A stretch of DNA of 64,000 nt, from positions 32,001 through 96,000 of IMG/VR virus record IMGVR_UViG_3300010885_026047; one strand, written 5' to 3'. A program made the position numbers and the translations under genes. The notes under the pieces were generated by a model. That model did not search any database and was not told the DNA's origin. It was given only the letters and a program-made list of their open reading frames with translations. This document shows, piece by piece, positions 3,151 to 62,070 of this stretch. Source of the stretch: a virus. Each line of letters starts with the position of its first letter. Position 1 is the first letter of the stretch.

Positions 3151-3501
3151 CTACAGGTTGTCCCTCCATTCTTGGAGAGTTGTCAATAATACCGGCTGTG
3201 GTGCATCATCATCTCCCTGGTAGACCATCATCTCTCCATCTTCATAGAGAACTATCTTGGCTACAGTATACTCGTTTTCAGGCCAGTGTATCTGGTCAAA
3301 CTTCCTGTCTCCATCTCGAAACTGCTCTATATCATCTTCTACGTCTGCTATGATCTCCAGTTGCGCTAACCTTTCTGTCTCAAAAACCTGTGGGAGAGTT
3401 TCTTCTCCTTCACCTGTTCTCCAGACAAGTTCTGTACCACTTATCGTGTTTGTAAGTACGCAGTAGCCTTGTAGCTTTATACCTTTACTTTCTGTGCTCA
3501 T
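3151..3501 (-). CDS. hypothetical protein
   Basis: ATG at 3501 overlaps the upstream stop. Confidence 0.65.
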   Translation of the reverse strand: MSTESKGIKLQGYCVLTNTISGTELVWRTGEGEETLPQVFETERLAQLEIIADVEDDIEQFRDGDRKFDQIHWPENEYTVAKIVLYEDGEMMVYQGDDDAPQPVLLTTLQEWRDNL

Positions 3502-3674
3502 TTTCTTTTCAGTTTGTTGTAAACAATGTCGATACACAACAGAGACTTCTTAAACCCTTCCATATCTGTTATACCATGTAGAGCTGCCCAGTTCCTAAGT
3601 TCTCTACGTGTATCCATATTTCTTAACTCTGCTATGTTTAACCCTACACGTATCGTTATCTCTTGCTTTGTCAT
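3498..3674 (-). CDS. small hypothetical protein
   Basis: ATG at 3674, coupled to the downstream gene. Confidence 0.55.
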   Translation of the reverse strand: MTKQEITIRVGLNIAELRNMDTRRELRNWAALHGITDMEGFKKSLLCIDIVYNKLKRK

Positions 3675-3690
3675 ATATAAGTTTTTAACA

Positions 3691-5265
3691 TCAGAACGGA
3701 AGATCATCGAACCACATAATAGTTTGGTTGTTGTTATCCTTTAGTATTTTATCAGCTTTCTTAAAAGCCCCCTCTGAGTCCCAGTTAGTGTTGTTATAAC
3801 TTGCAGAAGCCGGGTGTTTTAGTGGTATACAGTAGTGTTGCATTGGGTTTATATAACTTATAGACCTTTGAGCTTCTTCTCCGAGAAAGAAAATGACTAC
3901 ACCTGACATATACTTGTTAACTATCTCTTCCCAAAAGTACTGGTTAAAGTCCTTCCATAAAAGTTGGTTTGATAGAGGTTTCCCTTCTTCTACAGTTAGA
4001 GCTACGTTATAGCATAAAACCCCCTGACTAGCTAACCACTTCATGTCACCATAAGAGTTGTTTTGTTTGTGCATACTACTCCCATATACTCTCTGTAGTT
4101 CATCATACCATTGCTGTAAACTAGGCTGTACACCTTTAGTGTTTTTAGTGTAACTACAAGACATACATAAGCCATCAGCGATAGGTTTTCCGTTCTCAAA
4201 AGTATGATATGGACACATTCCCGCTAGTATAACACGTACTTTTTCAGGAGGCGTTTCTTTGAAAGCTCTGAAAACATCAGAACTTGCCGGAGCTATGTTT
4301 ATCTTTCTTGCAGATCTATTTTTTAGAACTTTAAATATGTTATCAAAACTATCTGACTCTATAAATGGTTTAAATAGCCTAACCCACTCTTTTCCCATCT
4401 GACTTTCTACAGCTTCTATCTTCATTTGTTGTTTAGTTTTATACTTATATACATACCCTTTGTTACTCTTTGGTTTATACTTTCCTCTACACCATAAAGC
4501 CATAGTTATAGGATGAACTTTTGCATCTATAGCTGCTTCATTTTTACTATAAAAGCTACATATAAGGTTTCCATCAAGATCATACTTTTCTATCTCTAAC
4601 CTGCCTCCATTTTCTGATGTTCTCCTAGCATGTTCTGCATCATGCTTCATACCTCTTCTTTTAGCAGCACCCCTTTCTACTTGTTTTTTTGTTAGGGGTT
4701 TTCTCTTTTTCAGACCTTCTGATATTGCTATACTATGCTCTACTGATCTCTTTTTTCCTTTTAGTCTTTCACTGTTAGCCTTTTTCCACTCTTCAGTATG
4801 TTTTCTACCCTTTGTAAAACCTACACCGTTTCTACTTTCTAACACTTTTTTCCAAGACTCAGACTGACGTTTTCTTATCTCTGGTGATCTCTTCTTTCCA
4901 GTGTTAAAAACTCTTAACTTTTCTTTGGTTTCCTCTGATACAGAAGGAGCATCTCTGTGTGGATGAGTGGGTTCTATGTTATAACCACGCTCTCTGTTAT
5001 GTACATCAAGTAGTGTAGCCCAGTAATGTTCTTCGCTGAACAGGTGCTCTATATCACACTCAACTAGAAGTTCAAAAACAAAATTATCTATACCATACCT
5101 ATTAACTGCGTACTGTAGATGATCGTTTCCATGTACTTTTCTTACTAACTGAGATTTATGGTGCCTTAAACGACTTTTTACATAAGTTGCTTTACCTACA
5201 TATATTTTGTTATCTACAAGGTTAGTTATAGTGTATATCCCGCTTGTATCTTTTCTAGTGTGCAT
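3691..5265 (-). CDS. GIY-YIG homing endonuclease (NUMOD3/NUMOD1-type repeats) fused in frame to a family-1-like uracil-DNA glycosylase
   Basis: GIY..N.VDNKIYVG, R..HH, E, GYN motifs and HTEEWK-type repeats; from an internal ATG at 4425 the UNG motifs VFRAF, GMCPYH (for GQDPYH), GLCMS, QGVL..N.ALTV and HPAS. Confidence 0.85.
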   Translation of the reverse strand: MHTRKDTSGIYTITNLVDNKIYVGKATYVKSRLRHHKSQLVRKVHGNDHLQYAVNRYGIDNFVFELLVECDIEHLFSEEHYWATLLDVHNRERGYNIEPTHPHRDAPSVSEETKEKLRVFNTGKKRSPEIRKRQSESWKKVLESRNGVGFTKGRKHTEEWKKANSERLKGKKRSVEHSIAISEGLKKRKPLTKKQVERGAAKRRGMKHDAEHARRTSENGGRLEIEKYDLDGNLICSFYSKNEAAIDAKVHPITMALWCRGKYKPKSNKGYVYKYKTKQQMKIEAVESQMGKEWVRLFKPFIESDSFDNIFKVLKNRSARKINIAPASSDVFRAFKETPPEKVRVILAGMCPYHTFENGKPIADGLCMSCSYTKNTKGVQPSLQQWYDELQRVYGSSMHKQNNSYGDMKWLASQGVLCYNVALTVEEGKPLSNQLLWKDFNQYFWEEIVNKYMSGVVIFFLGEEAQRSISYINPMQHYCIPLKHPASASYNNTNWDSEGAFKKADKILKDNNNQTIMWFDDLPF

Positions 5266-5420
5266 AACAGTAAGTCCCCAGCATATAGGTGCAGCTACAT
5301 ACCAGTCGAGAGTGGACGTATCCTATATGTGGGGAGTTTCTGTAGTTAGTAAATGTCATAAAACTGGTAATAGCTGCAGTGCTAAGGTACTACTTTTCTG
5401 TCAACTTTCCAAACTTTATC
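5266..5420 (-). promoter_or_regulatory. Bacteroidota-type promoter plus structured attenuator-like leader
   Basis: -7 element TACCTTAG (5382-5389) with TTTG upstream; two interleaved inverted repeats, 5275-5289/5322-5335 and 5290-5306/5363-5378. Confidence 0.6.
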
Positions 5421-5457
5421 CACTTACCGAACTGTTTCTCTATCTGAGGTGTTACTG

Positions 5458-5658
5458 TCATATCTTTTGTATCTGATAGTTTATGTCTTCAGGGGCTATC
5501 CTGTTTCCCCTGTTGTCTTTGTAGTATCCTTGCACTTTCCGGAACATCTCTCGCATCTCTTCTATTCTCTCTGTTACTTTCTTCTTACTTGTGTAAGTTC
5601 TGCAGAAGTCACACGGTATGTTGTCTGTACCGTTCCATATCCTGTACTTATAACTCAT
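5458..5658 (-). CDS. small hypothetical protein
   Basis: ATG at 5658 after an A-rich leader. Confidence 0.55.
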   Translation of the reverse strand: MSYKYRIWNGTDNIPCDFCRTYTSKKKVTERIEEMREMFRKVQGYYKDNRGNRIAPEDINYQIQKI

Positions 5659-5716
5659 ATCTGTTTGTTTTAAACTAACCACAAAACAGGAAGAGCTATG
5701 TCCTCCTGTTGCTTGT

Positions 5717-6406
5717 TTACCTTTGTTGTTTATACCTTTCCATGATCTGTACTACTGTTCTTGCCCAGTCAGAGCACTTGAACCATAGTTCACGCTCTTC
5801 TGCAGAAGTTGTGGGTAGATAGCTTTCTAACAGGAACTGTTTAGCAGTTACTGGTTGTCCGGGCATGATGTTTCTCCTTAACATAGCTGAGGGCATCAAT
5901 CTTTCGTAACCACTATCAGGTATAGCTGTCTTCTTGTACATCTTTCTGCAGAGTTCATCGGCATACTCGTTCCACCTCTTTCCTGCATGTCCTTCTGTCC
6001 ACATGTACTGTATGTGTGGGTTACAGCTTACGGCATCTTTCAACTTCTCCAGCAGATCACCGTTCTTGTTGGCTTCTTTACCCTTCTTAGCCATGATACT
6101 CTTATACACATACTGGCTATCTGTGTAGATAACCACCTGTTCCTGTGTAGTACTGTAGTCCAGTTCGAGATACTTTATAGCGTTTAACACACCCATGATC
6201 TCCATCCTGTTGTTAGTAGTACTTCTGAAGTGCTCTCCGTGTTCGTACAGGGCTTGTTCAGACTCCGTTATCACAAACGAGTACGTACCCGCACCTCCAG
6301 GGTTACGCATACAGCTACCATCTGTCCATACTCTCAGACAGGGTTTGTTTGGGTTAACCAGCACTTGTTTTGGCTCCCATTTCTTCTTGTTCTTTGTTAT
6401 CTGCAT
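5717..6406 (-). CDS. rnhA: ribonuclease HI
   Basis: WTDGSC..NPG, TTNNRMEI, YTDSQY, W..GHAG..WNEYADEL; all four catalytic acidic residues present. Confidence 0.95.
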   Translation of the reverse strand: MQITKNKKKWEPKQVLVNPNKPCLRVWTDGSCMRNPGGAGTYSFVITESEQALYEHGEHFRSTTNNRMEIMGVLNAIKYLELDYSTTQEQVVIYTDSQYVYKSIMAKKGKEANKNGDLLEKLKDAVSCNPHIQYMWTEGHAGKRWNEYADELCRKMYKKTAIPDSGYERLMPSAMLRRNIMPGQPVTAKQFLLESYLPTTSAEERELWFKCSDWARTVVQIMERYKQQR

Positions 6407-6419
6407 ACTTTCGTTTTAA

Positions 6420-6690
6420 CACTCATGCTTTGGTAACCTTCAGGAAGTTTGAGGGACAGACAAGCCCCCTACCCCCTGTTTTTCTGTCCTTTGGGAACTT
6501 GCCTCTCACCTGTACTTTTTTTGCTATACTTGCTCAGTATAACCCCCTATCAGCCATCGGTGCAGGTTCACACAAGCTTAGAAAGTGAGTGCCTGACTAT
6601 CTGAGAGTTTCATGGTGACATACATCACCCTCACATGTTTACTGTTTACGCTCTGTGAAGTAGCACCAGACTATCTACAATGAGAAAACC
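6420..6690 (-). ncRNA. putative structured RNA with a GGGGGUAGGGGG tract
   Basis: interval without a convincing ORF; several hairpins and a G5-TA-G5 tract at 6465-6476. Confidence 0.4.
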
Positions 6691-6860
6691 CCCATCTGAT
6701 GGAGACCCGGAAAGGTTATCAGTGGAGGAATTCCGGAGCACTTGTCTCCATCGTTTTTACCTTTATGTGTTTAAACTTGTACTCTCTATTGGGAACTTTC
6801 CGGGTCTCCTATAGTAACACAAAGGTACTATACCCATTTTTACTTTCCAATAGTTTTATC
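6685..6860 (-). promoter_or_regulatory. Bacteroidota-type promoter plus attenuator-like leader
   Basis: -7 element TACCTTTG (6820-6827); perfect 14-bp inverted repeat 6701-6714/6796-6809 competing with a terminator-like hairpin plus U tract. Confidence 0.6.
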
Positions 6861-6875
6861 ACATATTTCTTCTAC

Positions 6876-7625
6876 TTATGCAAGTTCCAGTTCTAACTTA
6901 CCGTACACGTTCTTCCGTACATCAGACAGGTTTAACTTGTTACTGATATACGTGTGTAACTTCAGGTGGTTCTTGATGTAGTTACCTGCATAACTCTCTT
7001 TGATCGCTTCTGTGGACCAGTTGTACAGGCTCCAGGCAGTTTTCTCACTGAAGACTTCGCTGTACCACATCTCTCTGCGTATGATCTCCAGTTGTGTGCT
7101 GTTTATCAGCTTTTCGTTCATATACATATCTCCTACAAGAGCAGCTATAGTCTGTTTAGACAGTTCCCGCTGCTTCATAGCCTCTTTTTCTGCTACCAGT
7201 TGTACATAACTTGTTTCTGCTTCTTCTATCACGTTAACCATCTGCTGACGGAGTTCCTGTAGAGCGTTTCCTGTGTGCTTTCTCTTGTACATGTTCTGTC
7301 CATGGCTATATGCCCCGTTAGAACAAACAAGCATGAGCATACCGCCATAGATACCCGCTTTCATCGTCTTGTTGTAGCTGTTGTGGAAACCTATAGCTAT
7401 CTGGCTCTCTTCTTCTACGTTGCTGATGATCCCATACTCCCCGGTTAGGATATGTCCGTTACTGGCAGAGAGATACTTCTTGCTACCTATAACCATGTTT
7501 TTCTTATCTAACTGTTCCTGTAGTTCTTCGATAAACACGTTATGTGGTATAACTGCGTATCTTCCCTCATATGTTGGCAGGTCTATACTCTGTAGAAACT
7601 GCTCGTTGTCTGTCCACTGTTTCAT
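6876..7625 (-). CDS. DUF932-like protein
   Basis: NSYNK....IYGG....VCSNG...KRKHTG and TAWSLYN..TE motifs. Confidence 0.7.
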   Translation of the reverse strand: MKQWTDNEQFLQSIDLPTYEGRYAVIPHNVFIEELQEQLDKKNMVIGSKKYLSASNGHILTGEYGIISNVEEESQIAIGFHNSYNKTMKAGIYGGMLMLVCSNGAYSHGQNMYKRKHTGNALQELRQQMVNVIEEAETSYVQLVAEKEAMKQRELSKQTIAALVGDMYMNEKLINSTQLEIIRREMWYSEVFSEKTAWSLYNWSTEAIKESYAGNYIKNHLKLHTYISNKLNLSDVRKNVYGKLELELA

Positions 7626-7645
7626 AACTTTTGTTGTTTTTGTTT

Positions 7646-7921
7646 TTACTTTACACTTATAACCCTGAAGTAGGCACACTCATACTTAACCATCAGGTCT
7701 TCTATCTCTGATATAGTCCCTTCCCACATCTCTTTACCCATCAACCTTTCTGTATCTGCTCTGATAGTTTCCGGGCTGTACATATGTTCCTGCAGGTCTG
7801 ACGTATCCATGTACTCATACGGTTCGTGCATCTCTAACCAAGACAACATATCTGTTGGTAACTGGTTACTGGAGATGTTCAAACAACTCACTTTGATATC
7901 ATCTGTATCTACTTGTATCAT
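7646..7921 (-). CDS. hypothetical protein
   Basis: coupled 91-aa ORF. Confidence 0.6.
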   Translation of the reverse strand: MIQVDTDDIKVSCLNISSNQLPTDMLSWLEMHEPYEYMDTSDLQEHMYSPETIRADTERLMGKEMWEGTISEIEDLMVKYECAYFRVISVK

Positions 7922-8109
7922 ATCTCTGTAGTTTTATAGTCATCTATATCTACTATCTCACAGTTAGCTTGACACTTTATACACCACTGGTCGTCCTGAT
8001 CAGCTTCCCCTATACCATCACACTCTCCGGTGTTACAGTTTCTCCAAACCCGTTCCTGAACCTCTTTACTCCCACACTGGGAACATACCCATATAGTCTT
8101 ATCTATCAT
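7918..8109 (-). CDS. small zinc-ribbon protein
   Basis: CSQC...WCIKC cysteine pairs. Confidence 0.65.
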   Translation of the reverse strand: MIDKTIWVCSQCGSKEVQERVWRNCNTGECDGIGEADQDDQWCIKCQANCEIVDIDDYKTTEI

Positions 8110-8369
8110 AAACCTTGTTCTTTTATCAGTTTGAAGATCTCATCTGCTGGTAGTTCTAACTGTTCTTCGTTGTCCAGGTAGAAGTCTACAGTCATACCTC
8201 GTTCTCTTGCATCTGCTTTAACTCTCTCACTACCACTTTTCTTGTCCTTCTCCAACACACTCTGTAGAGCTATAACACTTACAGTTACGTCTCCAGTTTC
8301 TGCAGAGTAGATATCTCTCACGGGATAACTCTTACCTTTGTACTTTATCGTTCTGACTAAGTTGCTCAT
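8106..8369 (-). CDS. hypothetical protein
   Basis: coupled 87-aa ORF. Confidence 0.6.
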   Translation of the reverse strand: MSNLVRTIKYKGKSYPVRDIYSAETGDVTVSVIALQSVLEKDKKSGSERVKADARERGMTVDFYLDNEEQLELPADEIFKLIKEQGL

Positions 8370-8608
8370 AGCATCTCTTTTACTTTTTCTATAGACTCTC
8401 TATCTACGTGGATACTTTCTTTCTCATCTACTTCATACCATGTGAGAGACACTTGTTGTTGTCCACCATACTCTCTTTTGTCTATCATGATCTGGGCTTT
8501 TAAAGCACACTGATCTACTATATCTTCAGACCATCGCTTTAACGAGTTATAAGTAGCATACCAGTCTTTATCTTCTACTTCGTTTGTTATCTCTGTTACT
8601 GTCTTCAT
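8366..8608 (-). CDS. hypothetical protein
   Basis: coupled 80-aa ORF. Confidence 0.6.
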   Translation of the reverse strand: MKTVTEITNEVEDKDWYATYNSLKRWSEDIVDQCALKAQIMIDKREYGGQQQVSLTWYEVDEKESIHVDRESIEKVKEML

Positions 8609-9600
8609 ATCACTTGCTTTTCCTGTAAAAAACTCTTTATGTTCTCAGCATGTCCATCTAACTTATACCAGTCGCTCCAGTCCTTAACCCCTTTCTCCAG
8701 TAGATATCTTGGTGTGTTTACGTATTTGTAACCATAGCTGTCACATATCTTCTTGCAGTTACGAACACCAGTATCATCTGCGTCAAAAGAAACTCGTATA
8801 TCCTTACCTTCCAACCGTTTTATCAGATCTGGTGTTATACCTGAAGTTCCTTCGTTCTGACTGTTGATAACCCATATATCTTCAGGTAACAAGTTGGACA
8901 ACGTGAGACGATCCTTACGGCTTTTTGTCAACACAACTTTTGGGTGACCGTTCAGACCTTCCAGGTTCTCTATCTTGCTGCAAGAAACGTTTGTCTTCCA
9001 CCTACCTTCCTGACGTGTTCTATCTGGCATGTACATCTTGAAAAGGTCTCCCTCAAACCTATACGCAAACACGTTTTCCCCTGACTTTATCTCTTGTCTT
9101 TTCCTGTTGAGAAACCACTCTGAGACGTTGTGTATATCCTCTTTCTGCAGTTGTTGTTGGTCTATCCCATACGCTTCCCAGTACTGTAGAGCTTTCTTTG
9201 TCCACTTAGCTGCTGTAACGTGTATCAGTGTGTCTTGTTTCTCTATAACCGGCTGTTGGTAGCTACTGACTATCTTGTTATACTGCAGACCATCTGCTAC
9301 CAGTAGACCAAAGTCCTGTGCTATCTTCTGAAGAGCTTGCGGATAGGTTAGACCGTACATCTTCTGTACCATATCTACAGGACCTCCTTTCTCATCAGTG
9401 CTATAGTCTCTCCAGTATAACCTTCCTGAAGTACTTGTACCTACCGAAAACGAAGGAGAACGATCACGTCTGAAAGGGCTTTTCATAACCGTGTTTAGCC
9501 GGAACTCCTGCAGGTACATGTGATATATATCAAACTCACTTAACTTACTGCTAACCAATTCCTTCAGGTCCGGTTTGGGACTTGCTACTTTTATCGTCAT
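8605..9600 (-). CDS. DnaG-type primase (crAss-like)
   Basis: SPFR.D..PSF N-terminal domain, TKS.KD, TOPRIM FDADDTG and KDWSD motifs. Confidence 0.85.
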   Translation of the reverse strand: MTIKVASPKPDLKELVSSKLSEFDIYHMYLQEFRLNTVMKSPFRRDRSPSFSVGTSTSGRLYWRDYSTDEKGGPVDMVQKMYGLTYPQALQKIAQDFGLLVADGLQYNKIVSSYQQPVIEKQDTLIHVTAAKWTKKALQYWEAYGIDQQQLQKEDIHNVSEWFLNRKRQEIKSGENVFAYRFEGDLFKMYMPDRTRQEGRWKTNVSCSKIENLEGLNGHPKVVLTKSRKDRLTLSNLLPEDIWVINSQNEGTSGITPDLIKRLEGKDIRVSFDADDTGVRNCKKICDSYGYKYVNTPRYLLEKGVKDWSDWYKLDGHAENIKSFLQEKQVI

Positions 9601-9856
9601 AACCTGTAGGTTTTTGAAAAGATAAACAAAGTTCTCGATACTGATCTACCAAAGCCCAAAAGTTCCCTGCAAAATGGTCAGATATCTCCTTTATGATCTC
9701 CACTTGTCCTGTAACCGGATCACGTATAGTAGATAAGTTGTATAGCTCCGTTTCTGGCACTTTATCTTCTACTTCTCGTTTCCACTGATCTTTTGCAAGA
9801 CATCTCGACAAAGCCTCAACATCTACTTCTATCCACTCTTGTTTTTCATCTGCCAT
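9551..9856 (-). CDS. hypothetical protein
   Basis: 101-aa ORF overlapping the primase start. Confidence 0.55.
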   Translation of the reverse strand: MADEKQEWIEVDVEALSRCLAKDQWKREVEDKVPETELYNLSTIRDPVTGQVEIIKEISDHFAGNFWALVDQYRELCLSFQKPTGYDDKSSKSQTGPEGIG

Positions 9857-9875
9857 CCTATCTGTTGTTTTGTTA

Positions 9876-10244: not shown

Positions 10245-10350
10245 ATCTTCTTTGTTTTTAACACACTTCAAAGAGCTACACAGACAGCTTCGGACATCCC
10301 TTTCTCCAGCTATCTGTGTAACTCCCTTTAGTTGTGTATCGGTTTGTTTG

Positions 10351-10569
10351 TTAGAAACCTTGTAAGTCTTCGTATCTTTCTCCTTCTCTCCAAGCTTCTA
10401 GTACTTCGTCAGCATCTACTTCTATATCGTCCACTACATCTTCTACATAGTACTTTTCTAACCCCATATCTCTACTAAACAACCACTGTTCTACCTGCCT
10501 GAGAGTATCACATCGGTAGACTATCTGACCTTGGTACTCTCTGATCCTAAACTTTTGTACTTCTGCCAT
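10351..10569 (-). CDS. hypothetical protein
   Basis: 72-aa ORF in the gene run. Confidence 0.6.
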   Translation of the reverse strand: MAEVQKFRIREYQGQIVYRCDTLRQVEQWLFSRDMGLEKYYVEDVVDDIEVDADEVLEAWREGERYEDLQGF

Positions 10570-52628: not shown

Positions 52629-55385
52629 ATGAGTATAGTTAGCGGCTACGAGTTATATAAGGGTAAAAAACTACCGGAGAATGACTACCCTACAAACAGT
52701 TTCTTCCAACCCTTGCAGTTCTTACCGAGTAAGTCTAAAGATAGCAGTTGGTATTGCCAGTGTCTGAATTACATAGACTGGCAGTCACTTATACAGTTAA
52801 GACGAAACGCTAACTGGATGATGAAAAACTACAAGTTAGCTATAGGTGAGATAGAAAAGAGTGATTATATACAACAGGATAGTGAGTATGCAGACATGAT
52901 AGAGTCCTTAGACCAAAGGGCTGGAGGTGTTCTGGAGTCTATGGAGATCAAAAACTATAGTTTTGCCAACACAGTTATCAACATACTTGATGACGAGTTT
53001 GCTAAAAGGGTTTCTCACATGTCCTTTTCTGATGGTAGTCCACAGTGGGCTAATGACATGCTTACCCAGAAAAAAGAGGACATAGAGCAAGTACTGGAGC
53101 AAAAAGCTATGATAAACCAGATGCTGCAGATGCAGAAGATGGGTATCGCTCCAGACAGTGACCAGGGTAAGCAGATGGTTGATCCAAACACTATCAAGTC
53201 CCTACCAGAGATACAGAAGTACTATAACAAGAGTTACCGGGATATATATCAACAGTGGGCCGAGAAACAGATGGTCTACGATAACGAAAGGTTCTGTATG
53301 CCTGAGTTAGAACGTGTCCAGTTCAGGAACATGTTGATAACAGATAGAGAGATATGGCACTTTCGTATGATGGAAAACGACTACAACCTTGAAGTCTGGA
53401 ACCCTCCACAAGTAGCTTACAGAAAGTCACCTGATGTAAGATACCTATCTGATGCTGCATGGGTATGTCATGTTACCTACCTGACAGTACCTGACTGTAT
53501 AGACAGACATGGTTGGAAGATGAGTGAAGAACAATTACTCTCTTTAAACACTATACACGGAGCAAGATCAGCTACTTATGCACTTGATGGTAAAGAACCA
53601 GATCAGTACTGGAGAGGTGACCAAAGTTACGACTGGAACAGAACAGGACCAGGTATAGGTATGAGACAAGCTTTATCTGTACTTGATAACGTATCTGGTT
53701 CCGGAGGTGATATAACTAGGGCCATCTTAAACCAGGGAGAAGACGTAGTAAACATCAACGGAGAGTTTATGGTTCGTGAGTCTACTATCTACTGGAAGAG
53801 TGAACGAAAGTTCTTTCACCTGACCAAGATAGATGATCAGGGGAACCAGATACAGGATATAGTAGGTGAAGACTACAAGGTTACCAGTAAACCTATGTAC
53901 AATACAGTTCTCTATCCTGAAAAGTGTAAAGAAACTTTGATATACGGAGAGCACTTAGATCCTTTGTGGTGTAACGAAACATGGGGAGGTATCCGTATAG
54001 GTACAAACGTTCCATCTATAGGTTGGCAGGGAACTTCTGCTACTTTTGCACCTATCTATCTGGGAACTACAGGACCAGTTCCATCAAGACTTCCGTTTCA
54101 GTTCAAAGGAGACAAGAACTTGTACGGAGCAAAACTACCTGTAGAAGGACGCATCTATAACGATCACAACACTAAGTCCAGAGCTTTCTTAGATAACCTG
54201 AAACCGTGGCAGATAGGTGTAAACATGACCATGAACCTTATCGTGGATACTATGGTTAACGATCTGGGAGTTATAGCTGGTATAGATCCTAATGCTATAG
54301 CTAAACACTCTTTGGGAGAAGACTGGGGACCTAACATCTGGTCTGCTGCTATAACAGTAGCAAAGAACACAGGTACTATGCCCATAAACTCTGCAGGTAG
54401 GGGTTCTGATGGACAACCTATAGGACATGATCCTTTACGAAGAGTGGACTTATCTCAGACAGACAGGTTGATGGGTCTTATGAAGATAGCTGACTGGTTC
54501 AAAACAAATGGCTTAGACAGTGTAGGTTTAAACCCAAGACGTACCGGAACACCTATAGGACAAGAAGCAACAGCTACTGAAGTTAAACAAGATGTAGCCA
54601 GTTCTTATAGCCATACGGAGTATCTCTTTACACAACATAGCGATGATGTTATGCCAAGAGTTCACCAAATGAGAACTGATCTTGCCCAGTACTATAACAG
54701 CACAAACCCATCTTTAAGACTACAGTATCTGACAGCTTCTGACGAACAGGTACTTTTCCAGATAGATGGAACTAAGCTACTAGGAAGAGACTTTAACTGC
54801 AAGAGCACAACTACAGTAAATGCCCGGTCTATCATGCAGAAGATAGAGCAGTTACTGATGACCGATAACACTTCCGGAGCAGACGTTTACGATAAGATAA
54901 AAGCTATCCAGACACCAAACTTATCAGCTCTAAACCAGGTAGTAGAACAGTTAGGTAAGAAGAAAGAACAAGAACAACAGGCTCAACAACAGGCAGAACA
55001 GCAACAAGCACAGGCAGAACAGCAACATCAGATGCAGATGCTACAAGAGAAACAGCAGTTTGAAGCTGAAGAGAATGCTAAAAAGATACAAGCAGAGAAC
55101 TATAGAGCAGAAATAGCAGCAGCGGCTAAAGCGGCTACTGGAAAACCTGCAGATGAGAGTGAAGGAGCTTACCAGGAAGCAACCAAGATGCAGCAACAAC
55201 AACAGATGCACACTGATAAGATATCCCTGGAACGTAGCAAAGAAGCCAACAAGAACTCTTTAGAGACACAGAAACTGGCACTTGGTAAACAGAAGTTACA
55301 GTCTGAGGATGCCAGAACCCGTCAGGAACTTCAGGTAGCGAAGATCAACCAAAAGACCAAGGAGAAAGAGAAGACAAAGAAGTAA
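52629..55385 (+). CDS. portal protein
   Basis: 918 aa between TerL and scaffold/MCP; NYKLA.G, KLPVEG, LKPWQI and Gln-rich coiled-coil C-terminus as in crAss-like portals. Confidence 0.85.
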   Translation: MSIVSGYELYKGKKLPENDYPTNSFFQPLQFLPSKSKDSSWYCQCLNYIDWQSLIQLRRNANWMMKNYKLAIGEIEKSDYIQQDSEYADMIESLDQRAGGVLESMEIKNYSFANTVINILDDEFAKRVSHMSFSDGSPQWANDMLTQKKEDIEQVLEQKAMINQMLQMQKMGIAPDSDQGKQMVDPNTIKSLPEIQKYYNKSYRDIYQQWAEKQMVYDNERFCMPELERVQFRNMLITDREIWHFRMMENDYNLEVWNPPQVAYRKSPDVRYLSDAAWVCHVTYLTVPDCIDRHGWKMSEEQLLSLNTIHGARSATYALDGKEPDQYWRGDQSYDWNRTGPGIGMRQALSVLDNVSGSGGDITRAILNQGEDVVNINGEFMVRESTIYWKSERKFFHLTKIDDQGNQIQDIVGEDYKVTSKPMYNTVLYPEKCKETLIYGEHLDPLWCNETWGGIRIGTNVPSIGWQGTSATFAPIYLGTTGPVPSRLPFQFKGDKNLYGAKLPVEGRIYNDHNTKSRAFLDNLKPWQIGVNMTMNLIVDTMVNDLGVIAGIDPNAIAKHSLGEDWGPNIWSAAITVAKNTGTMPINSAGRGSDGQPIGHDPLRRVDLSQTDRLMGLMKIADWFKTNGLDSVGLNPRRTGTPIGQEATATEVKQDVASSYSHTEYLFTQHSDDVMPRVHQMRTDLAQYYNSTNPSLRLQYLTASDEQVLFQIDGTKLLGRDFNCKSTTTVNARSIMQKIEQLLMTDNTSGADVYDKIKAIQTPNLSALNQVVEQLGKKKEQEQQAQQQAEQQQAQAEQQHQMQMLQEKQQFEAEENAKKIQAENYRAEIAAAAKAATGKPADESEGAYQEATKMQQQQQMHTDKISLERSKEANKNSLETQKLALGKQKLQSEDARTRQELQVAKINQKTKEKEKTKK

Positions 55386-55405
55386 GCTTTAATACAACTA
55401 TGTAG

Positions 55406-55433
55406 AAAGGGTTCCTAAAAAGGAGCCTTTTTT
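55406..55433 (+). terminator. intrinsic terminator
   Basis: AAGGGTTCCT/AGGAGCCTT plus T run. Confidence 0.7.
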
Positions 55434-55581
55434 AGTTTAAAGTGTGTTGTATAAAGAAAAACACTTATGAACTGATATAACCCTAAGCTATGGGATATTT
55501 CTATCTAGCCTCTGAAACATCCCTATCCGTATAGTTTGATAGTTGTTCGATGTAGTTTTACATAGAACCAACCAATATCTT

Positions 55582-56907
55582 ATGTTTGACAACGTATTTG
55601 AAACTAATCAACAGTCAGCCGGTACAGATGTACTGGACGGTATCTTTGGTACAAGCGGTACTAATGATATCCTGATGGCTAAACCAGAGGATAAGAAAGC
55701 TCTTGAACAAAAAGAGATAGCTGCCAATGTTTTGAAAAACGAAACACTGGACAAAGTTTTAGATAAGTCAGTTGAACAAGCTGCTGAAAACAAACTACTG
55801 AAAGAGAAAGAAGTAAAGACTGAACCTGTAGTAGTTGACGATAAGAAAGTTAAAGATATACTGGACAGTGCTATAACTGAAACACTTAAAACTGTCGAAG
55901 TAGAAGAAACAGAAGAACAACCTACTGCAGGTCGTCCCAAGACTGAGAAGAACACACTGATCAGTTATCTGAAAAAGAAAATAGAAACAAACGACTACGG
56001 TCTTCCTGATACTATAGAGTTTGATGCTACCAAGCAGTCACTTGATGATGTTCTGGCTAAACAGTCTGAAGAGTCTCTTCACTCTATACTAGATGCTAAT
56101 TGGGCAGCTAAAGAGAAAGCTCTTATAGACCAGACACCTACAGAGTTCTTTGAGTCACTTCCAGAGTCTTTACAGTATGCAGCTAAAGCAGTTGCTGCTG
56201 GTGCTGGAGAAGACCAACTACAGGATATATACAGGGCACTTTTCTGGGTAGAACAAGTTAAAGCACTTGATGAACGTAACGAAGATCATCAACCTGCCAT
56301 CATCCAGAACTATCTACAAGCTACTGGCTGGAAACAAGAAGCTATAGCTGAACAGATAGAAGAGTGGAAAGAGAACAACAAACTTGGAAAAAAAGCTGCT
56401 GAGTTCAAACCTATGTTGGACGAGATGCAGAAAGAACAGGTTGAAGGACAGATTCGTGCGCAGGAAGAACAGCGTAAACGAGAAGAACAACTAGCTAACT
56501 TCTACAGTGAAAACGTATATAAAACACTGGAAGGTAACCAGTTAGCTGGCGTAAAACTTGATAAAAAGTGGGCACGTCAACTGGCAGATAACATGACCAA
56601 CACAGTTCAGTCTCCATGGAACGGACAACCTGTTAACTACTTAGGTTATGGTTTACACAAGGCTCAGTTTGTAGAACCTGACTATGAAGCAGTTATGATA
56701 GCTGCCTGGGTTCTTAACGATAAGAAAGCAGCACTTGAAGCACTTGGTCAAAGATCAGCAAATGCTCAGGTAGAAAAAGATGTTAAACTGATAAAGGCCA
56801 ACCAACCTGGTTTTGGTACATCCGGTCAACCTCAGATAGCAGAACCAAAAAAACAGATAAAACGTATCAACACTTCAAACGTACTAAAGCGTCCAAGTGT
56901 AGTATAA
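55582..56907 (+). CDS. putative scaffolding protein
   Basis: acidic coiled-coil protein between portal and MCP. Confidence 0.7.
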   Translation: MFDNVFETNQQSAGTDVLDGIFGTSGTNDILMAKPEDKKALEQKEIAANVLKNETLDKVLDKSVEQAAENKLLKEKEVKTEPVVVDDKKVKDILDSAITETLKTVEVEETEEQPTAGRPKTEKNTLISYLKKKIETNDYGLPDTIEFDATKQSLDDVLAKQSEESLHSILDANWAAKEKALIDQTPTEFFESLPESLQYAAKAVAAGAGEDQLQDIYRALFWVEQVKALDERNEDHQPAIIQNYLQATGWKQEAIAEQIEEWKENNKLGKKAAEFKPMLDEMQKEQVEGQIRAQEEQRKREEQLANFYSENVYKTLEGNQLAGVKLDKKWARQLADNMTNTVQSPWNGQPVNYLGYGLHKAQFVEPDYEAVMIAAWVLNDKKAALEALGQRSANAQVEKDVKLIKANQPGFGTSGQPQIAEPKKQIKRINTSNVLKRPSVV

Positions 56908-56939
56908 CATAAAACATTCACAACTAAAACAAACACACA

Positions 56940-58679
56940 ATGGCAACTCCAGTCCAAAACCTCCAATCCACTTTCTTCGCAGATAAGTACTATGAGTTAG
57001 GTGGGTCACTAGACAGCTATCACCTCCGTAACATCCTGCAGAACGGTAAACCTGATGACTTGGGTATCATAGAGTACTGGTCACAGATGCAACAGACAGC
57101 AACTCCTCTCTACCTGATGAGTTCGTTTGGTGGTAAAAACGTCCGTACTGTACAAGATGCTATGGGCAGGTATACGTGGAAGACTCCGGTTATAAATGAC
57201 CTTCCACACATCACTCGTGACGTTAGTCCTTCTAATGTCAAGAAAGGTAAAGCCGGTCAACCTTTCCAGATAGCTCTTAACCGTAGAGCTTTTAGTTATA
57301 CAGACGTTATCACTTACGATAAGATGTCCGGTCTGGAAATGCGTGTATGTGACAATGAGATCATATCTCTTGGTAACAACGAGTTCCTATATACAGTACG
57401 GTTGATGAACAACAACAACGCTGCATACCTGGACAACAAGTATCTTGTACCTCAAACCTCTTTCTTCCGTAAGTACTCTGTCAAAGCCAATGACTATGGA
57501 GAGCGTTACAGTGAAGTGTATGTTCGTACAGGTCTCCGTGAGTACTACAACTTCGTAGGTGGAGGTGTGGCAACTGCTTCGTTCACAGTCAGTAACATGG
57601 CTGAGAGGATGATGAGGGCTACCTATAACGGAAAAACAGGTGGTATAGACCTTAAACCAAACAACAATGGTAAAAAAGGTATACCAGTTCGTGAGTTCTG
57701 GAAGATCAACGACTGGAAACAAGTATGGGCTAAAGACCCATCTATCGTTTCTATACCTGATGCAGCTACCAAACTAGGTCAGGCTGGTATCATAGAAGGT
57801 CTGGAGAATGGTTGGTTGGATAGGTCTATAGTTACTTCTCTGGAACAGGCATGTATCACTAAACTTGTGGAAGATGTAGAGAACAACCTGATGTGGGGTC
57901 TTGGTGGACGTACCACTACAGATGGTCCAGATATGGTTCGTACTTCTGTAGGTCTGTGGAAACAGATGGATAACGCCTTTAAGACTGTTTACAACATCGG
58001 CACTTTCACACCAAACATACTGGAGAACCAGATATATAACTTCTTCCGTGGGCGTGTTGACTTTGTGGGACCAGACCCAGAGCGTAAACTGATCGTACAA
58101 ACAGGTCAGGCAGGTATGAGGCAGATGAACAACGCTATCAAACAGATGGCTATCAACTCCGGTCTTGTTATCAATGCTTCTGAAGTAGGGGCTATATCAC
58201 ATAACGGTGGTGGAGGCTCAGGTCTGATAACTAAGGGTGGAGACAGTCTTATACAGAGAGGTATGGATCTGGACTTCGGTTATGCTTACACCAGTTACAC
58301 TATACCTTTCCTTGCAAACGTAAAGTTTGTCATCAACCCTGCACTTGACCCTATCCTGGCTAACGACATAGAAAACCCATGGGTAGACGGTTATCGCACA
58401 AGTTCTTACTGCTATATAGTATGGGACATCACCGATAACCCTGAAGACAACATCTTCCTGATGAAAAAACAGACAGACGAAGATGACTTCCAGTGGTTCT
58501 ACCAGAATGGTACAAGTGACTACATGGGTTCTACCAAGAACTTCCAGTCAAGTGGTTTGTTCTCCGGGTTTAAAGTGTTCATGAGTATGGATCATAAGAG
58601 CCTACAAGTAATCGATAACACTAAATTACTTAAGGTGGTCCCATACAACGTTGTTACGAAATTGCCATTTGGCGGATAA
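56940..58679 (+). CDS. major capsid protein
   Basis: position; DSYHL, LMWG.GG, GLW.QM, VQTG.AG and FVINPALD motifs of crAss-like MCP; own terminator. Confidence 0.85.
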   Translation: MATPVQNLQSTFFADKYYELGGSLDSYHLRNILQNGKPDDLGIIEYWSQMQQTATPLYLMSSFGGKNVRTVQDAMGRYTWKTPVINDLPHITRDVSPSNVKKGKAGQPFQIALNRRAFSYTDVITYDKMSGLEMRVCDNEIISLGNNEFLYTVRLMNNNNAAYLDNKYLVPQTSFFRKYSVKANDYGERYSEVYVRTGLREYYNFVGGGVATASFTVSNMAERMMRATYNGKTGGIDLKPNNNGKKGIPVREFWKINDWKQVWAKDPSIVSIPDAATKLGQAGIIEGLENGWLDRSIVTSLEQACITKLVEDVENNLMWGLGGRTTTDGPDMVRTSVGLWKQMDNAFKTVYNIGTFTPNILENQIYNFFRGRVDFVGPDPERKLIVQTGQAGMRQMNNAIKQMAINSGLVINASEVGAISHNGGGGSGLITKGGDSLIQRGMDLDFGYAYTSYTIPFLANVKFVINPALDPILANDIENPWVDGYRTSSYCYIVWDITDNPEDNIFLMKKQTDEDDFQWFYQNGTSDYMGSTKNFQSSGLFSGFKVFMSMDHKSLQVIDNTKLLKVVPYNVVTKLPFGG

Positions 58680-58706
58680 TTATATATGTTCTGCTATAAA
58701 AAGACT

Positions 58707-58730
58707 AACCCTACCAAGTGTAGGGTTTTT
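58707..58730 (+). terminator. intrinsic terminator
   Basis: AACCCTAC/GTAGGGTT plus T run. Confidence 0.75.
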
Positions 58731-58817
58731 CTTTGTGTACTTACTAAAAATATATAAGTAAATACTTGGAAAGATAACAGAAAGATGCTAACTTTGTTCA
58801 AACTAAAAACATTGAAC

Positions 58818-59735
58818 ATGGAAGAAGAAATAGTAAAGAAGCCAGTAAGTTCTCTAAAGAAGGTAAGCCAGGAAAGACGAGATAAAGTGATCGAACTACA
58901 TGATGCCGGACACTCTCAAAACTATATCTCAACCGTACTATCTATGACCTGCAGAACTGCTCAGGCTATCTTAGAAGCTAGTGGGAGAAAAAGAACGAGA
59001 AGTGAACAGAGTTACTTTCATCATAAAACATCTACACTAAAAGAAGATGCTTTTGATGTTATAGATACTGAAGAAAAAGCCTACTGGTTAGGTTTTATTT
59101 ATGCTGATGGGTTTATAACTAACCCTAATGCCAAAAGTAGTAAAAAATATAATGTGGGCATACTTCTTAAAAAAGATGATATAGGACATTTGGAAAAGTT
59201 CAAACAGTTTTTAGATGCTCCTCAGAAGATAACACTTGGTACATCTACAATCAAGGGTATAGATAAGACTTACTATAACGCAAGGATAAACATAGGTTCT
59301 CAAAAGCTGCATAAAAAGTTGCAAAACTGGGGTATAACATGGAACAAGAGTTATGATGCAAAACCTCCAGAGGAGATGAAGACTAACAGAGACTTCTGGA
59401 GAGGTGTAGTCGATGGCGATGGATACTTAGGTATAGTAAACGATAAGAGTAGAGCGAAAGGGAGGAAGAGATTGCACTTATGTGGAACTATAGATATGGT
59501 ACAAGGGTTTAAAGACTTTCTTGTAAGTAATGGTATAGGTACTACGTATGAAGTAGTTAGTGTAAGGGAGAGTATGCAGTATAAGATGGAAGTCAGTAGT
59601 ACAATGGCTGAAAAGGCTGTAAAACTTCTTTATGAAGGGTCTACAGTTTACCTAGAGAGAAAATACCAACGCTATTTGGAGATCATAAAAGAAAACTCTA
59701 ACTTTGAAACTCAAAAGGAACCATATGCCAGTTAA
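58818..59735 (+). CDS. free-standing LAGLIDADG homing endonuclease with N-terminal HTH
   Basis: AYWLGFIYADG and FWRGVVDGDG motifs, YLERKY; own TAACTTTG promoter. Confidence 0.9.
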   Translation: MEEEIVKKPVSSLKKVSQERRDKVIELHDAGHSQNYISTVLSMTCRTAQAILEASGRKRTRSEQSYFHHKTSTLKEDAFDVIDTEEKAYWLGFIYADGFITNPNAKSSKKYNVGILLKKDDIGHLEKFKQFLDAPQKITLGTSTIKGIDKTYYNARINIGSQKLHKKLQNWGITWNKSYDAKPPEEMKTNRDFWRGVVDGDGYLGIVNDKSRAKGRKRLHLCGTIDMVQGFKDFLVSNGIGTTYEVVSVRESMQYKMEVSSTMAEKAVKLLYEGSTVYLERKYQRYLEIIKENSNFETQKEPYAS

Positions 59736-61350
59736 AGAGAAGGAAACTCCAGAGCAAAAAGCTGTACGTATAGAGAAGTGGAAAGCTGACATGAAGTTGG
59801 CTAAAGAGCGAAAGAAGTTAGAGAAAGAGACGGAACAAGTAGAAGTTAAAGAGATGGGTATACCTTTAGACGTAAACACAGGGCAGCCTATTGCAGAAGT
59901 AGTAGAACTCGATATACCTGCAGATCTAAACTTACCTAAAACAGACCCAACTAAACAGTATAGAGACTTTCAAAAACTTCATAGAGGGGATCAGACAACG
60001 ATAAGTCTGCAGGAGTTGCCTATAGAAGATATGATAAAAGCGAAAAGTGACTTGAACCTTCGTGAGGCAGAAGAGAAGTTACCGGGAGAGTCACCCATTC
60101 CTTTTATCCGAAAAAAAGTAGAAGATGTACAAAAAGGTTTGTTACAGGAGACAGAGAAAGCAATGTTTAAGTTATCAGAAGACCCACCTGTACCTTTTGT
60201 AGCAAAAGAAATGATACCAGTAAAGGAACCAACCAAACAGAACCATATGTCAGAAACAGCAGTACTCGAAGTAACAAAACCGCTCCTTTCAGAGATAAAG
60301 GGTCGTATAGCTATAAAACCTTATGTATCCGGTGAGGAGAACATGGGCCTGGAAGATGAGAACCAACCAGGGGGAGCTATGGTCATATCTCCAGATAGTC
60401 GTCAGTTAGATCGTATAGGATGTGAAGTAGTTAACGGTTTTATCACCTACTTTACAGGACTTAACGAACAAGCCAAAGAGGTACAGCTCCTGCCAGAAGC
60501 TAAAAAAAGAGCTAAGATAGCAACTATACGTCAGGTAGTAGCTTACCTGGAAAACTCTATAGCCAGTAACTTTAAAGTACGTGTAGAGACCTGCATGGAT
60601 AACTTCGGTACTAAAGACGATAACTTCTGGGAGAACGTAACCAAGTTCAGGAGTAGTGGTATGATACAAGTTGATCAGAAAGGGTCTCGTATACCTACCT
60701 ACTGGGATGGTGTAGAAGTAGAGCTAAACAACGCTACTAAAGTACTTGATAAAAGTAACCCGAAAGACCTGATCATATACTATGCTATACAAGGACAAGG
60801 TTTAAGCCTTATAGCTCCAAGTTTAAACGCTGCTATAGAAGCAAGAGGTGCTTATAAGTGGTACTTAGACCAACCTGAAGAGACAGCAAACATACAGACA
60901 GAAAGTATCAAACTAAAGTATCAGGCTGCTGCAGCTTTGGAGACTATGCGTACCAGTGACGAAAACCGGTTGTTCTTGGTAAGTAAAATGGTTGCACTTA
61001 ACAACTCTTCCTACTACAAACGTGGAGGTCCCGGATATACCCCTATAAACTTCATGTATAAAGACATGAGTGACTATATAGAGGGAAAACGTGGAGAAGT
61101 ATCTATAGCTGCTGTAGATAGGTTCTTAGAGTTCTATAAGATGCCTATAGACGAACTGATGTGGAGAGCTATCCTTAAAGATGCTGCAGAGTATCACTTA
61201 CTGGATACCAAGGGTGATGGCAGGACTTACTACAAGAACGAAGCTTTGGGTAAAACCATAGAAGATATCGTAGAGTATCTAAGCAGGTCTATAAACGAAA
61301 AAACAGCAGCAGATCTATCAAATGCGATAGAGAACGTTTGGGCTGAGTAA
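59725..61350 (+). CDS. crAss-like structural protein following MCP, with N-terminal extension
   Basis: IKPY...NMGLE, TGLNE, FWE motifs; possible internal start at 60247. Confidence 0.65.
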   Translation: MPVKEKETPEQKAVRIEKWKADMKLAKERKKLEKETEQVEVKEMGIPLDVNTGQPIAEVVELDIPADLNLPKTDPTKQYRDFQKLHRGDQTTISLQELPIEDMIKAKSDLNLREAEEKLPGESPIPFIRKKVEDVQKGLLQETEKAMFKLSEDPPVPFVAKEMIPVKEPTKQNHMSETAVLEVTKPLLSEIKGRIAIKPYVSGEENMGLEDENQPGGAMVISPDSRQLDRIGCEVVNGFITYFTGLNEQAKEVQLLPEAKKRAKIATIRQVVAYLENSIASNFKVRVETCMDNFGTKDDNFWENVTKFRSSGMIQVDQKGSRIPTYWDGVEVELNNATKVLDKSNPKDLIIYYAIQGQGLSLIAPSLNAAIEARGAYKWYLDQPEETANIQTESIKLKYQAAAALETMRTSDENRLFLVSKMVALNNSSYYKRGGPGYTPINFMYKDMSDYIEGKRGEVSIAAVDRFLEFYKMPIDELMWRAILKDAAEYHLLDTKGDGRTYYKNEALGKTIEDIVEYLSRSINEKTAADLSNAIENVWAE

Positions 61351-61362
61351 AACTGATAACAC

Positions 61363-62070
61363 ATGCTTAACCAGTTGTTGCGTTTAAAACTTAAAAACAG
61401 AGTCAACAAACTTGACTCCTTAGACTATGGTCTGGTTGAGCCATGGATACAAGCTGAAGTTTTAAACAAAGCTCAGAGCGACTGGGTTAGGAGACAGTTG
61501 GAAGGAGTTAACCAGGAGAAAACAGGTAACGAAGCATCTATCAGACGTATAGATGACCTACAACAACTACTCTCTACCTGGACTGGAAGTTTTACAGATA
61601 GAGGGCAGTTCTGGCAATCAGAGACTTGGCCCTCAAACTATATGGAGTGGTGTCGTATAGATGTACAAGGACAGGATGACTGTAAGAAATGTCCTCCTCG
61701 GAACATGACGATCTTCATGGGTAACGAAGCAGATGTCTCTATATACCTATCCGATAAGTACAGAACTCCAAACTATGAATGGGCTACTACTTTTGCAACT
61801 GTAGCTAACAACACTTTTAAGATCTGGACAAATGACCAGTTTGATCTGGTAGACCCTTTAGTTACTTTCTATAGAGCACCTCAAACTATAGTTTTTATTG
61901 GAACTTTAGACCCTTACACAAACACTGTAAGTCCTGTAGATATACCCTGTGAGTTTCCAGATAACATAGCTGAGATTATAGTAGATGAAGCTGCTGCTAT
62001 ACTTATAGGAGATATAGACGATTACATGAAGAATAAACTACTGGTAGAACGAGCAGAACATAACACATGA
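61363..62070 (+). CDS. head-tail ring / connector protein
   Basis: NKLDS.DY, LNKAQ, RRIDDLQ.L, YR.P, CEFP....EIIVDEA..I. Confidence 0.75.
   Translation: MLNQLLRLKLKNRVNKLDSLDYGLVEPWIQAEVLNKAQSDWVRRQLEGVNQEKTGNEASIRRIDDLQQLLSTWTGSFTDRGQFWQSETWPSNYMEWCRIDVQGQDDCKKCPPRNMTIFMGNEADVSIYLSDKYRTPNYEWATTFATVANNTFKIWTNDQFDLVDPLVTFYRAPQTIVFIGTLDPYTNTVSPVDIPCEFPDNIAEIIVDEAAAILIGDIDDYMKNKLLVERAEHNT

Follow-up and report, generated by a model that had tools for sequence, protein, structure and literature searches.

Purging of the trinucleotide AAT/ATT from the genome of a putative crAss-like phage

Chlorella viruses use nicking enzymes to degrade the DNA of their hosts and protect their own DNA by methylation. 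Two of these enzymes read very short words, CCD in the case of Nt.CviPII and RAG in the case of Nt.CviQII (PMC3017599). The antiphage toxin DarT2 ADP-ribosylates single-stranded DNA at TYTN and thereby blocks polymerases (PMC13368585), and for classical restriction it was found that a partial removal of sites already helps the virus (PMC6286503, the survey by Rusinov et al. 2018). Here we analyse a stretch of 64,000 nucleotides (the window, bases 32001-96000 of the 113,639-bp viral record IMGVR_UViG_3300010885_026047; window coordinates are used throughout), from which the trinucleotide AAT and its reverse complement ATT have been purged. The purge is independent of strand, codon phase and coding status, proceeds by silent replacement at several positions of the word, is interrupted by islands of higher density and is specific to this lineage. 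Literature searches on the avoidance of trinucleotides by phages, crAss-like or not, did not yield an account of the phenomenon. Of all anti-defence strategies, only sequence avoidance records in readable form what the defence recognises.

Depletion of AAT and ATT on both strands and in all phases

No trimers of the window are rarer than AAT and ATT, whose observed/expected ratios (o/e) are 0.20 and 0.18 against base composition and 0.30 and 0.26 against dinucleotides. Between positions 3500 and 62000, where o/e of the two words together is 0.17 (base composition), 291 copies of AAT are found against 1006 ± 28 expected from first-order Markov simulations keeping dinucleotide frequencies (z = -25.8). 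Simulations of the same type expect 1054 ± 30 copies of ATT, and 225 are present (z = -27.6). With z about -26, a dinucleotide bias is rejected as the cause. A 500-bp map reveals two states: over long stretches each 500 bp contain 0-2 copies (about 25 expected), and in sharp islands they contain 10-30. Our statistics on the purged background and on codons exclude the islands and cover 79 kb of the whole record and 106 genes. In this background 159 of 2128 expected AAT and 91 of 1994 expected ATT are left (o/e 0.07 and 0.05). Long-resident genes have lost about 19 of every 20 copies through silent changes. A sequence-only reading of the window had claimed a strong two-strand avoidance across 3500-62000. 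The avoidance is real and stronger than claimed; it is not uniform, however, as islands with an o/e of 0.3-0.8 take up about one third of the record.

Codon choice follows the same rule. Asn is coded by AAT 166 times and by AAC 1428 times in the purged genes, and Ile by ATT, ATC and ATA 51, 461 and 1355 times, which agrees with the coding of Asn by AAC and of Ile by ATA or ATC noticed earlier. The sister pairs prefer T or are balanced (GAT:GAC 1028:803, TAT:TAC 767:689, TTT:TTC 696:380). Expectations for the junctions between codons were taken from synonymous-codon shuffles, which preserve the protein sequence and the already biased codon usage. In plus-strand genes, junction AAT occurs 34 times in phase 1 and 50 times in phase 2 (379 and 526 expected), and junction ATT 38 and 30 times (321 and 462 expected). 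The shortfall in minus-strand genes is equal, about 10-fold below the shuffles; junction o/e of sense AAT is 0.093 in plus- and 0.098 in minus-strand genes, and that of sense ATT is 0.087 and 0.133, which fits a reader of the duplex or of both strands alike. When the next base is A, C or G, GAT, CAT and TAT account for 52-71% of their pairs (GAT share of GAY 0.54-0.71); before T, where they would form ATT, their share falls to 0.04, 0.11 and 0.07. Codon usage or tRNA supply is therefore rejected as an explanation, since out-of-frame junction motifs are depleted about 10-fold beyond codon usage and the remaining NAT codons are favoured unless a T follows.

Intergenic DNA outside the islands holds 19 motifs where 219 are expected. 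Depletion is equal in both gene orientations and is present in all three codon phases and in non-coding DNA. No asymmetry between the physical strands is found beyond an in-frame excess of the Asn codon AAT, which tracks gene orientation. Thus the depletion survives the controls for dinucleotides and codon usage and is confined neither to in-frame codons nor to one strand, and the impression that codon junctions dodge the motif is confirmed on genes of either strand. The gene of the major capsid protein (MCP, 56940-58679) contains 13 AAT, of which 9 are AATG; an estimate by eye for 56940-58600, about ten AAT and no ATT, equals the exact count of 10 and 0.

All flanking contexts of the word are depleted (o/e 0.016-0.195). 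AATT is the most depleted tetramer (10/611, o/e 0.016); it shows no depletion beyond that of its trimers (Markov o/e 1.6-1.8), and AATT or a longer palindrome is rejected as the true target. The avoided unit is a true trimer, best written AAT/ATT rather than AATH/DATT, and does not match the classical Type II recognition site of 4-8 bp, which is usually palindromic. With the strands merged, AATG/CATT is the least depleted context (o/e 0.14), and GAAT/ATTC and AATC/GATT are at about 0.03; on single strands AATG is at 0.195, CATT at 0.086, AATC at 0.044 and GAAT at 0.026. The tolerance of AATG/CATT claimed by the sequence-only reading is thus relative, as both forms are still strongly depleted, and it largely reflects a conflict with CpG avoidance. 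Among the surviving in-frame AAT codons 93 of 166 have G next, and T-ending codons are preferred before G for every NNY pair, avoiding CpG. The excess of AATG is mostly in-frame AAT-G (the hyphen marks the codon boundary) because the alternative AAC-G would make a CpG, which this genome also avoids. AAT-G is thus for the most part a trade-off between the two avoidances. A mild genuine tolerance of AATG/CATT may remain: CAT-T reaches 11% against 3-7% for AAT, GAT and TAT before T, and A-ATG is about twice as frequent per codon as A-ATA.

How the word is lost can be followed in orthologues. We compared conserved dipeptides at which a non-avoiding relative (L003/L083 or L081/L084; relatives' loci are numbered L001-L163) has AAT/ATT across the codon junction. 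The phage keeps the junction motif at 6 of 153 sites against L003/L083 and at 11 of 197 against L081/L084. The altered base is the wobble base, which corresponds to motif position 1 (A to G, T or C), position 2 (A to G, T to C) or position 3 (T to C, T to A). The silent swaps are specific to the phase: xAA-T becomes xAG-T, xxA-AT becomes xxG-AT or xxT-AT, and xAT-T becomes xAC-T, while xxA-TT is replaced by xxG, xxT or xxC before TT, or Leu is moved to CTN. In frame, AAT is changed to AAC, and ATT to ATA about twice as often as to ATC. At conserved Ile residues coded ATT in L003/L083 the phage has ATA 34 times, ATC 18 times and ATT once, and at conserved Asn residues coded AAT it has AAC 94 times and AAT 13 times.

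Since silent replacement occurs at all three positions and the word contains no cytosine, it is the word itself that is removed, and not the product of one mutational chemistry. Decay by methylation and deamination of the CpG type is rejected for a word without cytosine that undergoes five kinds of change at three positions. Selection against the word AAT/ATT is, as we judge it, established. The earlier proposal that selection acts on DNA against a motif of 3-4 nt, shorter than a classical restriction site, holds, the loss being present in all phases, both orientations and intergenic DNA, with silent replacements at three positions. What is left of the two codons stands in equal ratios to the C-ending forms, AAT/AAC at 0.116 and ATT/ATC at 0.11, and the other NAY pairs stand at about 1.5:1, a shift of about 13-fold. 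Under the usual mutation-selection-drift model this would correspond to a scaled selection of about 2.5-3 per site, i.e. each copy would cost little. Among the roughly 900 positions at which the strains vary, 40 were compared; one motif is gained and two are lost in the other strain, too few for a statement on direction.

The phage, its relatives and the islands

The record is classed as linear, and CheckV estimates its completeness at 88%. Its large terminase (TerL), portal and MCP match crAss-type PHROGs, by which the phage is assigned as putatively crAss-like (Crassvirales-like). TerL is 22-26% identical to that of named crAss-like phages of Bacteroides, Flavobacterium, Cellulophaga and Azobacteroides. 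The left end carries two open reading frames (ORFs) of 4638 and 2144 aa, candidates for the very large RNA-polymerase-like virion proteins of such phages. Uncultured homologues number in thousands. The relatives originate mostly from lake metagenomes, with some of marine origin, and those that are binned belong mainly to metagenome-assembled genomes (MAGs) of Chitinophagaceae, Fluviicola, Flavobacteriales and other Bacteroidota. No tRNA genes are found within the window, hence they give no hint of the host. One TerL relative with 45% identity (L183) lies inside a contig of a Chitinophagaceae MAG (DASYBV010000020.1, 373,651 bp, Puia sp.); this contig is either a mis-join or a sign that a relative is integrated or was co-assembled, and it may lead to the host.

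The phage itself is found in one freshwater run, and lake-water runs of three other studies contain a strain that is about 94-95% identical; no RNA dataset is among the runs listed. A mis-assembly or artefact is ruled out by exact contig matches in the probable source run and by the contigs of these three lake studies, which span purged blocks and islands. With such an identity across the purged blocks, the strains of the three studies must share the purge.

More distant relatives do not. Among 120 relatives of at least 8 kb, o/e of AAT/ATT ranges from 0.47 to 0.99 (median 0.83) and none is an avoider. An IMG/VR single-protein search with TerL gave no closer relative, and the same database searched with MCP gave L003 as the closest, with 85% identity of the capsid and 76% of the portal protein; its AAT/ATT o/e is 0.90. 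The whole records of three relatives show o/e of 0.74, 0.74 and 0.91. Our DNA-level comparison leaves out the closest TerL homologues, P0003 (66%), P0004 and P0005.

What the relatives purge are other three-letter words, AAT/ATT being the only purged word that has neither C nor G. At o/e < 0.15, TCG/CGA is purged in 39 of their loci, CCG/CGG in 22, GCG/CGC in 11 and ACG/CGT in 4, often in combination. The locus L124 (17.7 kb) has 0 of 76 expected CCG and 0 of 91 expected CGG, in every flanking context; L157 has 8/160 TCG and 6/209 CGA; and L010 combines a purge of CCG/CGG with a purge of the tetramer TCGA only. On a terminase tree (FastTree, local support only), the traits TCG/CGA, CCG/CGG, GCG/CGC and ACG/CGT change at least 17, 10, 9 and 3 times. 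Sister lineages thus purge different words and switch often, as host-specific pressures would produce. In the closest large relatives, L163 and L084, AAA/TTT is moderately depleted (o/e 0.41-0.43) and AA/TT is low, which is not seen in other relatives.

The phage shares one of these words. GCG and CGC form a second purged pair (95/660 and 114/668, o/e 0.14-0.17; GCGC 10/186, CGCG 3/186). This pair is low also inside the AAT-rich islands, and its purge is common to several members of the 9-member clade of the phage (L004, L005, L084). This purge therefore seems to be of earlier date and more widespread, and that of AAT/ATT more recent. Palindromes of 6 bp fall below the trimer prediction as well (median o/e 0.60 against 0.98 for non-palindromes, p = 9e-7). 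Twelve of them are near-absent after trimer correction, e.g. CTTAAG 1/44, TCTAGA 2/56, GGTACC 3/37 and CAGCTG 4/46, and CTAG has an o/e of 0.26; CTGCAG (112/51) and CTATAG (140/62) are enriched. Such a loss of palindromes is the classical signature of restriction avoidance.

For a protective modification we searched the 88%-complete record for a DNA methyltransferase, a thymidylate-synthase-like hydroxymethylase and TGT/DpdA, and found no match to PF01555, PF00145, PF02086, PF00303 or PF01702. The methyltransferase domains in 42095-47858 are of the FkbM and Methyltransf_24 types and are fused to or stand beside glycosyltransferases. They belong to a 13-kb cassette (36114-49492) directly upstream of the large terminase, with GT1, GT2, GT7, GT11, GT25, UDP-glucose dehydrogenase and epimerase/dehydratase genes, which may act on the virion, the host surface or DNA; no hydroxymethylase that would hint at DNA glycosylation is found in the record beside it. 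With palindromes depleted and no modification family found, we read the AAT/ATT purge as the same strategy of hiding by sequence, directed against a host factor with a 3-nt site.

The islands (Table 1) have o/e of 0.2-0.8. They coincide with homing endonucleases, accessory genes, the helicase block and the C-terminus of the tail fibre; homing endonucleases of the HNH-NUMOD4 and GIY-YIG types are found around 1-5500 and just upstream of it. We read 12463-15460 as a block of replication genes acquired from a non-avoiding donor, and the genes of 58501-63642 as partly ameliorated. The spread of densities is what is expected of DNA that was acquired at different times and is wearing down. One breakpoint, at about 30000, falls within the tail protein gene. 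Contigs of the source sample stop in loose ends at 30001-32300, which is taken as a sign of strain variation. A second variable stretch is 40054-43061 (UDP-glucose dehydrogenase, NAD synthase, FkbM methyltransferase), in whose place the strains of the three lake studies have 271 nt; it holds the island 41296-42802 and also the fully purged gene 40054-41208. The islands are a built-in acquisition clock: foreign DNA becomes visible by its AAT/ATT content alone, down to the breakpoint inside the tail-fibre gene.

Table 1. Purged blocks and islands along the window
Positions	Strand	State	Motifs found/expected	o/e	Content
1-5500		island		0.43	small unknown genes and GIY-YIG homing endonuclease 3691-5265
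5501-12462		purged block	29/331	0.09	minus-strand genes of replication (RNase H, DnaG-type primase); small ORFs, several of them free of the motif
12463-15460	-	island		0.51	AAA_24 ATPase, DnaB-like helicase, unknown gene
15461-24500		purged block	38/464	0.08	includes DNA polymerase 16955-18985
24501-27216		island		0.41	unknown genes and a 669-nt non-coding stretch
27217-30000		purged block	10/133		HNH-like gene 27625-28332 (0 motifs, 36 expected), 5' part of 1030-aa tail gene
30001-32300	+	island	87/132	0.66	C-terminal two thirds of tail protein gene 28914-32006 and next small gene
32301-41295	+	purged block	46/472		PD-(D/E)XK exonuclease 35296-36114, first half of glycosyltransferase/sugar-nucleotide cassette
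41296-42802	+	island	46/92		NAD synthase, FkbM methyltransferase
42803-58500	+	purged block	76/782	0.10	rest of glycan cassette, large terminase (3/115), portal (15/126), MCP (16/76)
58501-63642	+	mixed		58501-60000 0.28; 60001-61500 0.07; 61501-63642 0.34	several small genes in 61501-63642

Four minus-strand island genes in 48-1089 and 2071-3082 contain sense TTT once (18 expected) and CTT once (14 expected), with AAA (57) and AAG (52) plentiful. They code Phe by TTC 11 times and by TTT never and have no CTT for Leu. This signature is confined to one strand, in contrast to that of the AAT/ATT purge, and the genes may thus derive from a donor exposed to a pressure on RNA or on single strands. 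The last 745 bp at the right end of the record (record positions 112895-113639; L165:16895-17639) are non-coding, have a normal AAT/ATT content (40 against 42 expected) and adjoin a fully purged gene of 1561 aa.

A proposed host defence with three-nucleotide specificity and its rivals

Our preferred explanation, to which we assign about an even chance, is that selection on DNA removes AAT/ATT because a DNA-damaging host defence with 3-nt specificity imposes a small cost at each site. Each surviving copy would carry a small, roughly additive cost, caused by a frequent-cutting restriction or nicking enzyme of the host or by a DNA-modifying defence enzyme. The probability of a hit would be low per site, and each site removed would raise the chance of a successful infection. 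Recently acquired genes, i.e. homing endonucleases, accessory genes, the helicase block and the tail-fibre tip, would arrive from unexposed phages at normal density and would be worn down gradually. Suitable agents would be an enzyme that cuts or nicks very frequently in competition with methylation, or a DNA-modifying toxin.

Several points weigh against this explanation. About 1,000 copies of AAT/ATT are left in the record, some within essential genes, which excludes a potent double-strand cutter acting at every site and makes a low hit probability per site necessary. No AAT-reading enzyme is found in the record, and we know of none elsewhere. The data do not separate cutting, nicking, modification, binding and PAM (protospacer adjacent motif) recognition, and a methyltransferase or nuclease of the phage could lie in the missing part of the 88%-complete record. 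The host, probably one of the Bacteroidota, is only weakly indicated by the MAG binning of relatives.

The same purge would result if the weapon belonged to the phage, that is, if an encoded nuclease, nickase or modifier hit host DNA at AAT and spared the phage for lack of the word. There are precedents in the frequent-cutting nickases with 3-nt sites encoded by chlorella viruses (PMC3017599) and in phage HNH nickases with sites of 3-7 bp (PMC3592412). The phage has proteins of the HNH, GIY-YIG and PD-(D/E)XK types and many lineage-specific small genes that are fully purged. Two nucleases had been put forward as self-sparing candidates, at 35296-36114 and 27625-28242, and neither is supported, both being conserved in relatives without AAT avoidance. 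The PD-(D/E)XK exonuclease belongs to the core genes and has copies of 49% identity in three relatives, which either show no avoidance or avoid CCG; for the HNH-like protein (27625-28332) it is the C-terminal domain that recurs, at 41-42% identity, in two non-avoiders. Gene presence and absence against three relatives singles out no candidate specific to the lineage: homologues are lacking in them for 75 of the 128 ORFs, mostly small ones that are purged completely, and no gene was found in this comparison that tracks the AAT trait. Moreover, an enzyme made in every infection would face the sites that remain, including near-normal islands in the DnaB-like helicase block and the tail-fibre gene, and dense islands lie in genes that are essential. 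This evidence argues mildly against a nuclease of the phage itself, and we consider an own weapon unlikely.

A PAM would also be short. If AAT or ATT were the PAM of a host CRISPR-Cas system, its loss would lower spacer acquisition and targeting. Type I PAMs are words of 2-3 nt that are recognised in duplex DNA whichever way they point, with a small additive benefit per site that fits the pattern, and a depletion of PAMs has been reported for phages (PMC12174588). There the depletion is described as a modest shift in frequency and not as a 15-20-fold purge, and the islands of the present genome would still supply hundreds of protospacers. Across the family nearly every purged word is an NCG trimer, and a genome often purges two or three of them, which makes them look more like restriction targets than PAMs. 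We therefore give PAM avoidance little credence.

Motif-targeted mutagenesis could do without selection for loss, with the mutation rate of AAT/ATT raised about 20-fold by an enzyme or a repair pathway and the survivors filtered at the protein level. The equal residual AAT/AAC and ATT/ATC ratios fit a C to T input balanced by motif-specific loss, and the purge reaches non-coding DNA. However, no single chemistry like deamination or methylation decay fits five kinds of base change at three positions of a word without cytosine. Scrambling of the whole word would itself need an AAT reader and so overlaps with the host-defence explanation. Its probability appears low to us.

Messages might be the target instead of DNA. 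mRNA interferases with 3-nt sites are known, among them AAU-specific MazF enzymes, and a MazF-like interferase of the host that cuts AWU (AAU and AUU) would purge the transcripts. AAT and ATT together make the self-complementary word AWT, so that avoidance of AWU in the sense strand only would look two-stranded; the two-strand argument of the sequence-only reading, which had dismissed both codon or tRNA bias and an mRNA-level effect, thus holds for the former and by its own force leaves a reader of AWU. The mosaic from gene to gene would fit a benefit per transcript, and depletion of ACA in RNA phages under MazF is discussed in PMC12151602. Such an enzyme would have to cleave AAU and AUU equally, as AAT and ATT are equally depleted at the junction phases (o/e 0.09-0.13), which argues for DNA. 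GCG/CGC, co-purged in this genome, and TCG/CGA of the relatives are strand-symmetric and cannot be written as one RNA word, and a rule on DNA covers all of them with one mechanism. An RNA-level reader is very unlikely on these grounds. We find hardly credible a cost of DNA shape, in which narrow-minor-groove A/T sites without TpA bind a nucleoid or silencing protein of the host or a minor-groove small molecule: the rank of AATT as the most depleted tetramer, the retention of the TpA-containing ATA/TAT and TAA/TTA, AAA/TTT near expectation and an additive cost per site would suit it, but the loose specificity of such binders stands against the 20-fold loss of a single exact trimer whatever its context (AATC and GAAT included), AAAA tracts are kept, and the purged words of relatives are G+C-rich.

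The host-defence explanation can be extended from this phage to its family. Lake and marine crAss-like phages would then be attacked by an undescribed class of host DNA defences that read three nucleotides (AAT here; TCG, CCG, GCG and ACG in relatives) with a low probability per site, and the purged words would read out the specificity of the defence in each host lineage. We put this forward tentatively, with more doubt than confidence. If one enzyme class does underlie the purges, freshwater Bacteroidota would possess a widespread layer of immunity that has gone unrecognised, and enzymes that cut, nick or modify DNA very frequently could be drawn from it.

Comparison with known systems

To our knowledge, a 15-20-fold purge of a three-letter, non-palindromic word of A and T only can be assigned to no known restriction enzyme, PAM or toxin, and we know of no report of phage escape from DarT2 by motif avoidance. 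DarT2 of the DarTG system (PMC13368585) is alike in being a host defence enzyme with an effectively 3-nt DNA word, for which each hit is a replication block with a small additive cost on either strand; it is unlike in acting on single strands and in reading a different word. The depletion of the PAM CC in phages facing the I-F system of P. aeruginosa (PMC12174588) resembles the present case in its word of 2-3 nt on duplex DNA and in selection per site, and differs in the size of the effect as described there.

Restriction-site avoidance in virulent phages (PMC6286503) shows the same strand-symmetric silent loss of a short word, and here no methyltransferase of the phage itself is found in the 88%-complete record, and 6-bp palindromes and CTAG are low. 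In contrast, the known cases concern mostly palindromic Type II sites of 4-8 bp with a known cognate enzyme, whereas the word found here has 3 nt, is non-palindromic, consists of A and T only and is left in about 1,000 copies. Nt.CviPII, Nt.CviQII and phage HNH nickases are alike in reading non-palindromic words down to 3 nt on one strand, so that a word and its complement would both be avoided. The chlorella-virus nickases differ in being encoded by the virus together with cognate methyltransferases (PMC3017599); none of them reads AAT, and no homologue is tied to the trait here. Together with the phage HNH nickases they are the only characterised nucleases documented here that read words as short as 3 nt.

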